A stretch of 64,000 bases of DNA from assembly GCA_964016885.1 (NCBI GenBank), contig OZ024744.1, forward strand, positions 135,408,001-135,472,000, given 5' to 3'. The DNA is from Eledone cirrhosa. Taxonomy: Eukaryota. Shown piece by piece: positions 17,559 to 50,044 of this stretch. The translations under genes were made by a program, and so were the position numbers. The notes under the pieces were generated by a model. That model was not told the origin of the DNA, did no database searches, and was given only the letters and a program-made list of their open reading frames with translations. Position 1 is the stretch's first letter. Every line of letters begins with the position of its first letter.

Positions 17559-17670
17559 TGGTATATATATATATATATATAGTAATATATATATATATAT
17601 ATATATTATAATTATAAAAAATTATAAAAAATAAACCAAAGAAGCCTTCAATACATCAAAAGTCTTTATT

Positions 17671-17710
17671 AGCCAACAATGTTTCGTCCTATTAAGGACT
17701 CATCAGGGCA
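17671..17710 (-). ncRNA. Minimal type-I hammerhead ribozyme motif
   Basis: Minus strand GCC-CTGATGA-GTCCT(TAAT)AGGAC-GAAA-CATTG-TT-GGC, followed by AATAAA. Confidence 0.82.
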
Positions 17711-18041
17711 AGTAAAGCTACAAGAAGCACTATCGGCCAATACAAGCCAAAAACTCAGAAGAATATGGAGTATACATCTATTAAAGCTTAGGAAAGATAT
17801 CAAGGAAACGTTGGCTAAGATTAAGAGTGAGCAGTTACAAACATAGATATAGACCAAATAGCAAGGAAGTGATTAACATGTTGAACCCACACTGCAAATA
17901 TTATATAATGCAAAAACTTGAAACACAAATGTTTTTTATAATTCTTCGGCTCTGTTTAATTACATTGAGCTATATCCTATACTGTCATTTCTATAATATG
18001 AAGAGGGTGTTTAACTCCAACAGACTCTAGTATTTTAATTC

Positions 18042-18252
18042 TTATATATATATATAGTAATATATATATATATATATAGTAATATATATATATATATATA
18101 GTAATATATATATATATATATATATAGTAATATATATATATATATATATATAGTAATATATATATATATATATATAGTAATATATATATATATATATATA
18201 TATATATATATATATATATATATATATATATATATATATATATATATATATA
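18042..18252. repeat. (TA)n microsatellite with interspersed GTAA
   Basis: Direct reading. Confidence 0.95.
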
Positions 18253-18840
18253 TTGTTATACTTTGGGAGGGTCATGTTGCCAATAAGAAACACACGCACC
18301 AGTTGCTTTCACTTCAATTTATTATATATTTATAAATTTATAAATTTACAAATCTACAAACTTATAAATTTCTGGTTGGTTGGTTGGTTCCACAACCAGA
18401 TAGTTGTTTATATATATAGTCATAGTCCTTTCGTCACACACTCTGTGACCTCTTCAGTGACTGGGGATTTCAACACACGATTTCAGATAAAGAATCTTGC
18501 TAAACAAATTCAGAAACGAAATATATATATATATATATATATATATATATATATATATATATATATATAGTAATATATATATATATATATTTCGTTTCTG
18601 AATTTGTTTAGCAAGATTCTTTATCTGAAATCGTGTGTTGAAACCGATATTGTTATACTTTGGGAGGGTTATGTTGCCAATAAGAAACACACCAACCAAC
18701 CAACCAACCAGAAATTTATAATTTATAAGTTTGTAGATTTGTAAATTTATGAATTTATAAATATATAATAAATTGAAGTGAAAGCAACTGGTGCGTGTGT
18801 TTCTTATTGGCAACATGACCCTCCCAAAGTATAACAATAT
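18253..18840. mobile_element. Rearranged and inverted pseudo-LTR fragments of the PLE family at 49820-55595
   Basis: Near-identical to 49820-50095 and 55380-55595, present in both orientations and separated by (TA)n. Confidence 0.88.
18418..18462 (-). ncRNA. Minimal hammerhead motif in PLE pseudo-LTR
   Basis: Minus strand AGTCA-CTGAAGA-G-GTCAC(AGAGTGT)GTGAC-GAAA-GGAC-TA-TGACT. Confidence 0.72.
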
Positions 18841-18847
18841 ATATATA

Positions 18848-21800
18848 TAGTTATGTAATAAACAACATAAGCCAATTATTCCATTTACCAGTGGTTTCTT
18901 GAAAGCAAAGAATTTTGCTTTCAATCCTGAGAATGAAAAAATCCTGGTCTGTTTATTGAATTTGGATTTTAAAAACAAAAATGCAATCTATATGAAAGTG
19001 AGGCTGGAGAAAGAAGAAGGAAAGGAAAAATAAAATAAAACCACACATGCAAACACACACACAAACACATACACACAAAAGCATGCATACACACATATAT
19101 ATATATATATATATATATATACATACACTCATACATACACACACACATATACACATATATATGTGTATATAAATACACACATACACATACATACGCACAT
19201 AAATATCAACACATCCATACATACACATACATATATACAACCACACACACATATATACACACATATATATATATAAATATAAATATATATATATACATAT
19301 ATATATATATACATACATGCATACACATACACATACATATACATACATACATACATGCACACAATCATACCTATATACACACGTATATACATACACATAC
19401 ATAAAAGCGTACATATGCATGTACAAAATTAGAAAAATATACACACCTCTACATATTCACACACGCAAATAAATATAAGAAAAAATATATATAAAAAATA
19501 AAATTATTATACAGTTGACAGCGATACATGCGACGAGTAGATGAACAGACACGCGTGGTAAGCAATACACACAAATGCACGTACACATACGTACGAAAAA
19601 GTAAATACATACACACACTCTCACATAAATATACATATACAAATACATAAACACATACATACACATACACAAACACGCACACGCACATATATACACACAC
19701 ATATACACATACATATATATACATATATATATATATATATATATATATATATATATATATATATATATATATATATATATATATATATATATATATATAT
19801 ATATTTATTAAAATAACAGATTAAAGTTTAAGCAAAGAATCGCTGCTTTCACCCTTAACGGGATCTTCTGAAACTAACAAAGTCAATCTGTAAACGCAGA
19901 ACTGGATATTTCAAAAAACGTTGCAACCGGAGGAAGACAGGAAGACGATACTTTGGTTCGTGGTAACGTTCGCTGGCAAAGAACGGGAAAAAACGAATAA
20001 TACGTCATTAATAGGAGCGGTGAAAACAATTACGCGCAAAGACAAAACCACGTTTATGGTATAAAAGAGGTCGTAGACTAATGTTCTCTTAGGTGGTGCA
20101 TAGAGACGTTCTCTGGCAATGAACGAAAAAACGAAGATAATAAGTCATATGTGGAGCGTGGAGAACAATAGCACGCAAAGACAAAACCACGTAAATGGTA
20201 TAGCAGAAATCGTAGACTAAAATTCTAACTAGGAGACCAAATGAATCTCCGCTACAGAGTTAAGAACAAAGTAAATAAATACAATACAGAAGTAATAGAA
20301 ACAAATAAATACATACACGCAAACAGATACGTACATACACAAGCATACGCAAAACCTTACCATGGGTATACAAAACCACGCACATATAAATATGTGTGTG
20401 TGTGTATGCTTGTGTACAAATAAATAAATAATTATATAAACGTATATAAGTAAATAAATACGTATATAACAAGCGCACACGCATACCTACATATAAATAC
20501 ACGAATGTTCGGAGACGTAAGTCAACTAAAACAAGAAGTACACATATACACACACCCACCATACGTACGAACCTGCACACTCACGCGGACGCAAAACTCC
20601 CGTATACACATAGCCAAACCCTAAATACCAGAATATGTAAAAATTATACGCTATAACAGACAAATATACGTACGAGAAGGTATACATACCTTCACAAAAC
20701 ATACGGGTAATATATACTTACCTATGCAAATAAGTAAAGGAATAAACAAAACATATACTTAGCTCCCACATCAAGACGTAAAATATCCACGTATAGATCG
20801 TGCTATCCGTTAGGGTATAACGTGGGGTTGTAATACAGGAAAGTTTTGTGCAATTTATGTTTACAAGCCGAAATTGCCTCAGATTTTTTGTTTAAGATGT
20901 GGTCTGTAGCGTAGAGTATTTACAGGGCCTCAGCGGCGCAGAGGTCACATGGTCTTTTATTTCCGTTATACGATCTAGCCCTAGCTAGGATCTCCCAGTG
21001 TAACTTATATTGGGTGTGGTTGTCTTTTAGACTCCAGATATAAGCTGAAAGTGACGTCATATTCCTTCTTAGAGGGTAACGAAAAGAATGGGTATGCATG
21101 TAAAGACGCTGCTTGAAACTATTGGCGGTTAACCCTATGTAGGCCCTACGGGACGTGGGTGTTACAACCTTACATTTGTAGACAATGTTATTAGAGAGGC
21201 ATTTCCCGGATAGGGGGAAATCAGCCCGATTCCTACAATTACAGTTAGTACTAACTACAGGGTTGCACGTGTTCCTACGGCTAGGTAGTTTAGCTAAATT
21301 TGAAGCTGTGATGTTATGTGCAAGGTTAGGAGTCGTAGAGTAAGAAATTTTAATAGTATTTCTATTAAAATTTTTACTATATTTATGTGTAGGGGGGAAA
21401 TGCTTCGTAATAAGGGAAAGAAAGATCTTAGCTAATGGTGTGGCCACCTCCATATTATATGGTGGGTTAAACCAACAAATGCGACGGGATCTATTTCTTC
21501 TAGGTCTATTTTCGTACTCTGTATATGCTACCTTATCGACAAATCCACTTCGAGCAAGAGCTTCATTGTAATAAGTGGAATGGTCGTTGAAAATGCGCTC
21601 GTTGGTGGAAAGACGGGAAAGCCTCAACGAAACGTTTCTTACCAGGTTCTTGGTTATGCTGGCAGGATGGTTGGAATGCTTACTTATGTAATTAAGCGTA
21701 TCATTCGGCTTTCTATACGGGTAATACAACCCATTCAATAAATTGAGGGTAACGTCGAAGTAATTAACGACCGAGAGATTGGCCTCAGGTTGAGGCCAAT

Positions 21801-48488: not shown

Positions 48489-48593
48489 CAGTCTTGTATT
48501 CATTTTTCAAATTCCAAGCAATATCAGGCATGCGTGTGTCCCAGCCAATAATATTACCATTCACTGTGGCATAAGCTAACACAGACTTGGAAC
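48489..48593 (-). CDS. PIK3R4: PIK3R4/Vps15 internal exon (WD40)
   Basis: TTTCTGTTTAG|...|GTGAGT. Reads GSKSVLAYATVNGNIIGWDTRMPDIAWNLKNEYKT, with the Vps15 SVLAYATVNG motif, phase 1 to 1. Confidence 0.95.
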
Positions 48594-48703
48594 CTAAACA
48601 GAAAGAGCACAAGTAACAGTGAAAGAACAGTGCATCTGTGTTTATATATTTATATATATATATAAAGTACACAATAATCAAAGCTATGTTCAAATCATTT
48701 TAT

Positions 48704-48750
48704 TGCTGACAATTGTTTCTTCCAAACTTTCGTTTGGAACCATCGGAGCA
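48704..48750 (-). ncRNA. Hammerhead motif with mutated core (CCGATGG)
   Basis: Minus strand TGCT-CCGATGG-TTCCAAAC(GAAA)GTTTGGAA-GAAA-CAATTG-TC-AGCA. Confidence 0.65.
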
Positions 48751-49364
48751 TTAGCAATGTTTGTACATATAATTAACCTCCTATTCCACAGAACAATTGT
48801 ATAGATACACAACTCGAACACTGGATAACAATATAATAGGACCAATATACAATCCATAGCTGTAACTAATTAAAAACATAAATAAAATAAAATATAACCA
48901 ATGTGATGGAAAAGATAGCAATAACATTAATACCCTCAACACGTACACATTTGAACATAACAGAAACAATCATCACACTACATCCACCATAAGCTCATGA
49001 TTTTAATACACAAACATCTTTGCCTGCTTGATATGCTTGTAAACCTATGTTATTTTATGTGATACCTTTGCCATACAGTAATTATATATGCCTAGTACCA
49101 TTGCTTGTTTCCTACCTAGCTGTCCTGTATATGCCTAACGCATTTGCACTCTCTACATGCTTGCATATGTACTACTAACGTCCTCGTTTTACGAATAACT
49201 TTCTGCCTTAATGCCTCTTTAATTATTATACAATTCTCTTGTAATCTCTGTCACATCCATTCCACTCTGTAAATATGAAACTGTTGATGACAACATTAAT
49301 ATCCATGTATCTATATGATTGTTCAGTTGAATAGGAAGTTAATTATATGACCAAACTTTGCTAG

Positions 49365-49411
49365 TGCTCTGATGATTCCAAATGAAAGTTTGGAAGAAAC
49401 GATTGTCAGCA
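49365..49411 (+). ncRNA. Minimal type-I hammerhead ribozyme motif
   Basis: TGCT-CTGATGA-TTCCAAAT(GAAA)GTTTGGAA-GAAA-CGATTG-TC-AGCA, with a GUC cleavage triplet and AATAAA directly after. Confidence 0.85.
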
Positions 49412-50044
49412 ATAAAAGGTTTTGAACATAGTTTTGATTATTGTTTAATTTATATTCCGGCTCTGAACAACATCTGATGTATTTACATTGAGCTATTTTT
49501 CTTACAGGTAATAAGGTAGTAATAAATTACTGACCTTTCCTCTTTATAATTATATATAGTGTATATATAAGTATAAATAATATTATTATTATTATATGTA
49601 TATATATGTATGTATGTATGTACATGTGTATGTATGAACATGTGTATATATGAACATGTGTATGTATATAAACACACTTACGCATGAAGATAATTTATAT
49701 CTGCCAGTCTTTCTGTCTATATAACCCATGTAAACATGGAGAAAGAGACATATAATGACAATATATATATATATATATATATATATATATATACACATAC
49801 ATGTATATATATATATATATATTTCGTTTCTGAATTTGTTTAGCAAGATTCTTTATCTGAAATCGTGTGTTGAAACCGATATTGTTATACTTTGGGAGGG
49901 TCATGTTGCCAATAAGAAACACACGCACCAGTTGCTTTCACTTCAATTTATTATATATTTATAAATTTATAAATTTACAAATCTACAAACTTATAAATTT
50001 CTGGTTGGTTGGTTGGTTCCACAACCAGATAGTTGTTTATATAT

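Follow-up and report, generated by a model that had tools for sequence, protein, structure and literature searches.

The stretch of the Eledone cirrhosa genome considered here (assembly GCA_964016885.1, contig OZ024744.1, positions 135,408,001 to 135,472,000; 64,000 nt, hereafter the window) contains four cassettes with inverted arms. In each cassette one arm carries a GCTC/GAGC motif, and the opposite arm ends in (TA)n just before the position of that motif. The locus raises the question of what the motif does and why the two arms differ around it. We conclude that the motif is the first of two covarying hairpins at the junction between the pseudo-long terminal repeat (pLTR) and the open reading frame (ORF) of autonomous Penelope-like elements (PLEs) of the Hydra clade, that element ends lie about 6 nt upstream of one or other hairpin, and that each hairpin likely binds one reverse transcriptase (RT) on the RNA and fixes the start of copying. 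The asymmetry of the window cassettes is itself the known PLE tail (PMC3846280, PMC8557442, PMC11167929); statements about cited papers refer to the parts of each that we drew on.

The initial annotation of the window had placed four copies of the motif at the positions listed below as hairpin A. All were found there; they are the only matches to a relaxed pattern in the 64,000 nt, and 100 shuffles gave none. The opposite arms were seen to stop just before the motif and enter (TA)n at 18848, 32241 and 48660, as had been proposed, and the arm end regarded as probable near 17600 was located at about 17606, where short units are re-iterated. In the genome (3.0 Gb) the strict motif pattern had 3,058 exact matches and the reversed control none, and a variant pattern for the cassette 2 motif had 9,722 matches against 5 for its control. 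Seventy of the 3,058 strict loci were looked at individually. A hammerhead core was found at 44 of the 70, ending 58-71 nt upstream of the motif, and the onset of (TA)n was usually 57-78 nt downstream. The motif had been described as lying about 50 nt after both a hammerhead and an A(A/G)TAAA hexamer; this distance holds for the hexamer, but that from the hammerhead GAAA is about 60 nt. An inverted copy was present at 24 of the 70 loci, and in 22 of these it halted 1-10 nt before the motif, nearly always into (TA)n; the other two were a partial match (L084) and a diverged neighboring copy (L099). The PLE features of the window are as follows.

17606 to 17932, minus strand: long tailless arm of cassette 1, with terminal re-iterated 9-10-nt T-rich units
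17682 to 17706, minus strand: minimal type I hammerhead core of cassette 1
17933 to 18043, plus strand: short tailed arm of cassette 1 (about 14 nt of pLTR end, hairpin A, tail)
17947 to 17972, plus strand: hairpin A of family C1 (GCTC/GAGC stem, 2-nt bulge, inner stem)
18848 to 19800, minus strand: tailless arm of cassette 2, family N2, with a microsatellite-rich 3′ untranslated region (UTR); inner boundary approximate
18894 to 18931, minus strand: family N2 hammerhead, here with a mutation at one core base (by-eye comparison with other loci)
19804 to 21790, minus strand: family A copy, 5′-truncated and tailless, inside cassette 2 and joined via a 25-nt fold-back; RT thumb and GIY-YIG frame at 20920-21790, variant hammerhead at 19847-19870
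21812 to 21915, plus strand: short tailed arm of cassette 2, family N2
21855 to 21875, plus strand: hairpin A of family N2
32241 to 32789, minus strand: tailless arm of cassette 3, hammerhead at 32299-32329
33321 to 33965, plus strand: tailed arm of cassette 3, with hammerhead (33783-33813), hairpin A and tail
33874 to 33899, plus strand: hairpin A of family C3
48660 to 48809, minus strand: tailless arm of cassette 4, hammerhead core degenerate
49306 to 49560, plus strand: tailed arm of cassette 4, hammerhead at 49369-49399; tail end blurred by A/T-rich sequence at 49555-49590
49458 to 49495, plus strand: hairpin A of family C4, with a long loop
49819 to 55596, plus strand: Neptune/Nematis-like PLE, for comparison only; tailed inverted arm, tailless main body, no GCTC/GAGC hairpin

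The cassettes had been taken for unrelated, non-autonomous PLE derivatives, and neither description held. Families C1, N2 and C3 stand behind cassettes 1, 2 and 3, and their tandem copies run past the tail directly into frames that encode RT and GIY-YIG and are 862, 637 and 844 aa long, respectively; the proteins of the three families are 37-63% identical. Further RT plus GIY-YIG frames were read in family A (713 aa, full length), a young and abundant family that includes the GIY-YIG fragment at 20920-21810, and in another copy (829 aa). The cassette 4 family, C4, has a single read-through copy, whose frame is broken. Pfam gave no match on the window GIY-YIG fragment, and motifs were therefore taken from translations. 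Families A, C1, C3 and N2 have RWRA or RWKA and DKT motifs (one family A copy has NKT), and, compared with the criteria in section 11 of PMC8557442, a CxCX5C linker, CxxC and CxH around the catalytic E and N, and no CCHH; a hammerhead lies in the pLTR (the family A core is a variant) and insertion is into (TA)n. The N2 N-terminus is similar by eye to that of Hydra-1_Obim. These frames and motifs mark A, C1, C3 and N2 as autonomous members of the Hydra clade, which is characterized by RT with a C-terminal GIY-YIG domain, RW(K/R), DKT, CxCX5C, no CCHH, a pLTR hammerhead and (TA)n targets (Craig et al. 2021, PMC8557442). The window families also share with that clade the occurrence of partial tandems and of inverted 5′ copies; the present tails are longer (about 55-100 nt versus 30-40), as are the units (3.2-4.7 kb versus under 3 kb). 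Because the families carry such frames and Hydra marks, the cassettes are 5′-truncated inverted insertions of autonomous elements. A reading as non-autonomous PLEs or non-LTR (long terminal repeat) retrozymes was ruled out by the ORF-bearing family members, the broken C4 frame aside. Cassette 2 is not a single element: its N2 arms enclose the family A copy, and a probe from its tailed end had no match to the junction of full-length family A copies.

The role of the motif became apparent from the full-length junction. In family A the order is hammerhead, end 1, hairpin A, end 2, hairpin B and ATG. Hairpin B lies 55-100 nt after A, shortly before the ATG, and the tail is the A-to-B interval. Each hairpin reads GCTC, stem, loop, stem, 2-nt bulge and GAGC, usually followed by ACT. 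Since the family A junction has two hairpins, a second one was predicted after the tailed end in the other families. An A-plus-B pattern for the C1/C3 group had 139 genome matches (control, 0), with the ORF start next in most, among the matches listed. The first pattern for an N2 hairpin B detected only chance matches and palindromes (19 versus 3 in the control), because the loop is about 60 nt long; a read-through pattern that covers this loop had 137 matches (control, 0). C4 had one A-plus-B match in the genome. Hairpin B is absent from the window because it is present only in tandem read-through copies; the cassette 1 tailed arm ends in (TA)n about 6 nt before the hairpin B position of such copies. 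At G000:C2:169702715-169703475 (L374-L376), a 183-bp tandem array of five copies is built solely from the N2 junction and its two hairpins.

We then scanned metagenome contigs with a 39-protein alignment, which yielded 77 loci from the best 80 of 438. The strict pattern had 107 sense-strand matches in these loci versus 7 antisense; 66 fall in the 250 nt upstream of the ORF, 22 lie downstream of it, and 19 are within the reported spans, 18 of the 19 in over-long spans containing a tandem junction. At the 48 loci with at least 130 nt upstream, both strict hairpins were present in 20, one in 13 and none in 15, and these 15 comprise five with a pair within the span, five with variant pairs, one with hairpin A at the 3′ end and four with nothing. 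The A-to-B spacing was 55-83 nt, hairpin B ended 12-63 nt before the ORF, and clustering at 70% DNA identity divides the 47 loci with hairpins into 28 clusters. The hairpin pair is thus shared by relatives from marine metagenomes. A comparison with curated PLE consensus sequences, which had been called for, showed that the published Hydra consensi contain the hairpins, unannotated. By eye, in File S7 of PMC8557442, Hydra-1_Ajap (sea cucumber) opens with both hairpins before the ATG, Hydra-2_Ajap and Hydra-2_Amil (coral) end in the tail preceded by hairpin A, and variants of the hairpin are seen in the consensi from sea louse and octopus. The 3′ half of the motif has six matches in the whole supplement, four of them in the six Hydra consensi, and line breaks may conceal others.

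Covariation was measured in 75 distinct hairpins that had been picked on their outer letters alone. With a 2-nt bulge, inner pairs 1-3 were complementary in 73/75, 57/73 and 40/48 hairpins (shuffled means 57.3, 30.7 and 18.4), and none of 2,000 shuffles gave counts as high; bulge lengths of 0, 1, 3 and 4 nt gave no covariation signal in these hairpins. With one locus per cluster the counts were 45/46, 36/44 and 27/32. In a 54-row alignment, 61 cells were changed on both sides against 21.1 ± 3.4, and at three loci the outermost G-C pair has become U-A in both hairpins. The bulge letters are TT, TC or TA, and the GCTC-to-GAGC spacing ranges from 8 to about 60 nt. It had been claimed that all four window motifs fold with a 2-nt bulge; this is the minimum-energy fold at 17947 and 33874, but the bulge is absent from that of 21855 and 49458, and the 2-nt bulge therefore rests on covariation. 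The folding energies of the window hairpins are not significant (z -0.8 to -2.1), which fits a small protein-bound element. In the window and in 10 loci, no Rfam covariance model matched a hairpin region at E<=1. A covariance model built from our alignment finds all four window motifs, three of which were in its training set. Its other window matches (14799, E 8e-4, and weaker ones) were not linked to a PLE end, and the match at 14799 lacks the GCTC/GAGC stem.

The position of the ends relative to the hairpins was expressed as the gap from the last element base to the G of GCTC, judged against read-through references, low-complexity ones excluded. A 6-nt gap was the commonest value and fits 42 of 63 tailless (site 1) ends and 39 of 44 tailed (site 2) ends, and no end compared was closer than 2 nt to a hairpin. 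Eight metagenome-contig ends lie 3-8 nt from a hairpin; L299 was dropped as a further one, being a substitution within a continuing copy. The bases at -8 to -3 before the hairpins favor one TA phase (42 versus 25 hairpins, p=0.025), as would be expected if a (TA)n primer anneals to this patch. Re-iterated 9-12-nt units of the pre-start sequence were present at 7 of 41 tailless C1 ends and at none of 52 continuing copies (p=0.002); with exact units only, the count is 5 of 41 (p=0.014). Re-copied ends occur at window positions 17606-17635 and in L137, L140, L197 and L231 at site 1, and in L019, L192, L040, L056 and L106 at site 2. Up to about seven units were found per end; families A and N2 also have a few ends of this kind, as does site 2. 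Such units are what re-initiation by RT would be expected to leave, and they resemble repeat addition by telomerase. Minor third ends exist as well: in L357, L364, L368 and L250 the copy runs past the beginning of hairpin B and stops either within the long N2 loop or some 35 nt downstream of B.

We next considered how the two kinds of end are distributed between the arms of one insertion. A C1 anchor upstream of both ends had 2,272 genome matches, and all outward-facing C1 pairs within 5.3 kb were taken from the first 100 listed, a choice blind to the tail. All 22 pairs consisted of one tailless and one tailed terminus, one pair being classed after its true 3′ end had been fetched. The first 30 anchors comprised 14 tailed and 16 tailless ends, so the chance of a mixed pair is about one half, and the binomial probability is 4.8e-7 for 21/21 (C1) and 1.4e-5 for 17/18 (family A). 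Among family A pairs, nearly all from protein-picked loci, 17 of 19 were mixed; the one pair with two tails borders an internal junction and has a tailless true end. Samples picked by the tail gave 5/6 mixed pairs for C3 and 13/15 for N2. Twenty further C1 copies without a listed partner were examined, and the five that had one were all mixed (a single classification, with no second check). The ORF-bearing arm of C1 elements was tailed in four cases and tailless in four. The arms of one insertion diverge by 2.0% in C1 (14 pairs) and 1.0% in A (10 pairs), compared with 8.1% and 2.5% between insertions. Family A arm junctions show a 0-7-nt overlap in 17 of 21.

These results are best accommodated by a model in which one RNA is primed twice. 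The protein, probably as a dimer, would occupy the two hairpins of a read-through RNA, and its GIY-YIG domains would nick both strands of a (TA)n target. The A/U-rich bases immediately 5′ of each hairpin would pair with one of the nicked 3′ ends, and extension from that point would yield a tailless cDNA in one case and a tailed cDNA in the other. The two cDNAs would be truncated independently and joined through a 0-7-nt overlap into an inverted repeat with exactly one tail; where a single priming survives, a single-armed copy would result, tailed or tailless. Priming of one RNA at A and B would account for the single tail per insertion, for both arrangements of the arms and for their near identity. 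The initial annotation had offered a priming boundary among other roles for a conserved cis element near hammerheads, element ends and (TA)n; the covariation and end positions agree with such an element, and priming is judged the best reading of the motif.

Biochemical precedent comes from Poseidon. In vitro, RT on the PAc RNA starts at two internal sites that bound the tail, and it depends on template RNA lying 3′ of these sites (Frangieh et al. 2024, PMC11167929). The protein, a predicted dimer, cuts and extends both strands of AT-rich targets with no strand preference between the starts. Poseidon belongs to another clade, and its starts lie inside the ORF, in one so-called AC-rich stem loop; the parts of that paper drawn on here describe no repeated structure at each start and no link to the asymmetry of inverted arms. 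By eye, the PAc template given in its Methods contains at about +121 to +147 a candidate stem, 3-nt 3′ bulge and stem, of the same topology as the Hydra hairpins; it lies just after the main RT start at +111-118, inside the required region. The origin of inverted pLTRs with one-sided tails was posed as an open problem in PMC8557442 and partly answered in PMC11167929, and the tail, its presence at one end only and the inverted pLTRs had already been described (PMC3846280, PMC8557442, PMC8969392). The words hairpin and bulge do not occur in the main text of PMC8557442, which describes no hairpin, register or pairing rule. Nor did the full-text literature searched, which covered few subscription papers, contain a description of the hairpin pair, the fixed register or the pairing rule, as far as the parts drawn on extend (including PMC2377424, PMC4209133, PMC7761336, PMC6431247 and PMC5737381). 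A structured pair of cis elements, present across the clade of known Hydra-type PLEs, has apparently gone undescribed so far.

Several observations weigh against the conclusion that the hairpins fix RT starts on the RNA. At site 1, 21 of the 63 ends depart from the 6-nt gap, mostly farther upstream, and these include subfamily mismatches. The covariation shuffles correct for relatedness only partly, and the strand test, which asks which of the two strands folds, is weak (13 G-U versus 4 A-C oppositions). Four of the 48 metagenome loci (L281, L309, L322 and L328) show no hairpin. Two pairs, one of family A (arms 5.3 kb apart) and one of N2 (4.6 kb apart), have two tailless ends, although each may represent separate insertions. 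Fifteen of the 20 further C1 copies had no partner arm within 6 kb and were apparently single-armed, so two-armed products are not the rule. Seven of 21 family A inverted segments are local fold-backs of internal sequence, and self-priming therefore also occurs. The Neptune/Nematis-like element obeys one-tail pairing without this hairpin. Finally, the in vitro support is drawn from Poseidon, a member of another clade.

The main rival explanation is that the hairpins are read as DNA, the GIY-YIG endonuclease (EN) binding the cDNA or a double-stranded intermediate and cutting 6 nt upstream of A and B. The tail has been suggested to stem from EN-mediated resolution (PMC8557442), and the Drosophila virilis tail is needed for EN recognition of plasmid DNA, as related in PMC11167929; the TA phase upstream of the hairpins would also suit a TA-cutting nuclease, and the weak strand test leaves room for a DNA fold. 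However, the re-iterated units at the ends indicate repeated priming rather than a cut, Poseidon RT starts internally on RNA at both ends of the tail in vitro (PMC11167929), and a GCTC-GAGC spacing of 8 to about 60 nt is ill-suited to a duplex DNA site. The re-iterated units favor priming, and we consider recognition as DNA unlikely. Somewhat less likely still is a scheme in which the hairpins do set the RT starts, but the arms derive from two RNAs of the same source locus in an asymmetric complex. Arm identity does not distinguish one RNA from two transcripts of one locus, and in the one-RNA model the second RT would have to displace the first cDNA. Two independent RNAs would nevertheless give mixed pairs in about half of the cases, whereas 22/22 and 5/5 were mixed, and some further mechanism would have to ensure that one of them started at A and the other at B.

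We regard as improbable the idea that the hairpins are 5′-UTR translation elements, an internal promoter or splicing signals, with ends adjacent merely through A/T-rich priming patches. Hairpin B does precede the ORF start closely in the metagenome loci, the Penelope promoter and intron are in this region (PMC2377424, PMC8557442), and 5′-UTR and priming uses can coexist; yet the 6-nt register recurs at two hairpins in families with unalignable flanks, despite other A/T-rich patches nearby, and no conserved splice pattern was seen by eye in the metagenome loci. Least probable of all is the formation of the inverted arms by self-priming or fold-back of a single cDNA, as proposed by Arkhipova et al. 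2013 (PMC3846280), who described a tail that one inverted pLTR may or may not carry, with the motif merely stopping the copy. Short palindromes and fold-backs do exist at junctions (window positions 21763-21815, as well as the seven family A segments mentioned above). The one-tail pattern seen here is, in contrast to that optional tail, near-obligate in both arrangements, which argues for two priming events and not for fold-back. Short tailed arms face long tailless arms in window cassette 1 and in L183, L184, L193 and L196, and the reverse arrangement would yield two tailed ends under fold-back. Because fold-back is unable to add a tail missing from the first cDNA, it is contradicted for the terminal arms and survives only for local junction palindromes.

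The initial annotation had also noted a similar asymmetry in a Neptune-like PLE of the window. The asymmetry is there, but the GCTC/GAGC hairpin is not, and our covariance model had no match at this element. In the Neptune/Nematis-like family (49819-55596; 18250-18840) the 61-nt tail lies in the ORF start, both ends have an AATAT-CG context, and no comparable fold was found in the tail (z -0.06). CX2-5CxxC linker and CCHH motifs are visible in the translation, which does not separate Neptune from Nematis. Four of five adjacent pairs were mixed and the fifth was ambiguous. Since this element keeps the rule without the hairpin, the hairpin sequence is clade-specific, and the two-site logic may be general.

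One could thus envisage a bipartite RNA origin common to the Hydra clade, in which two bulged hairpins would each hold one subunit of an RT-endonuclease dimer, copying would start 6 nt upstream with occasional telomerase-like repeat addition, and programmed twin priming would produce the inverted pLTR and one-sided tail; this may even be the general mechanism of PLE integration. We consider the case for this wider proposal evenly balanced. Twin priming is known from L1, where two target-strand primers on one RNA generate an inversion joined by microhomology. The second L1 primer acts at variable internal sites 5′ of the first, whereas the starts proposed here would be fixed by structure and the arms overlap. 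In telomerase RNA a protein-bound structure lies at a fixed distance from a short primer-alignment patch, and repeats are occasionally added. This likeness is an analogy only; copying in Hydra elements proceeds through the whole element. PLE RTs are sister to telomerase reverse transcriptase (PMC8557442), and internal starts that a structure keeps in register, with repeats added now and then, are thus relevant to how telomerase-like use of a template came about. For the entire Hydra clade the hairpins would be the cis signal that had been missing, and a fixed 6-nt register and a strict pairing rule come with it. For curation, the hairpin pair defines element ends and provides a marker for non-autonomous passengers of the Hydra clade; it also points to a transferable signal, about 100 nt long, with which reverse transcription might be started wherever desired on an RNA.

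Some features of the families and of the window stand apart from these questions. The family A copy in cassette 2 is joined to the short tailed arm of N2 (18848-21915) by the 25-nt fold-back and a 4-nt overlap, a joint that arose by template switching from one family to the other or by a later insertion in which target sequence was lost. In the family A hammerhead core (19847-19870; L061), A replaces U at the second core position, and because an abundant young family has this variant core, hammerhead cleavage may be dispensable in it. The C1 and C3 proteins (L184, L265, L266) have an N/S-rich insert of 120-150 aa after the RT thumb, which resembles the N-rich inserts reported for rotifer Penelopes (PMC3846280).

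Elsewhere in the window, translations identified a gypsy-like LTR retrotransposon remnant (296-3440, minus strand), a Helitron-like Rep/helicase region (4254-9059, plus strand) and an L1/Tx1-like ORF2 (11231-14104, minus strand). Short minus-strand frames at 42641-43018, 45899-45990 and 48388-48699 resemble exons of a WD40-repeat host gene, and the window PLEs probably lie in introns of that gene. A 5S rRNA-like copy (36961-37079, plus strand) and a tRNA-like copy (29916-29986, minus strand) are possibly heads of short interspersed elements or pseudogenes, and tandem arrays occupy 34400-35700 (unit roughly 100 bp) and 59900-63500 (unit 40-50 bp).

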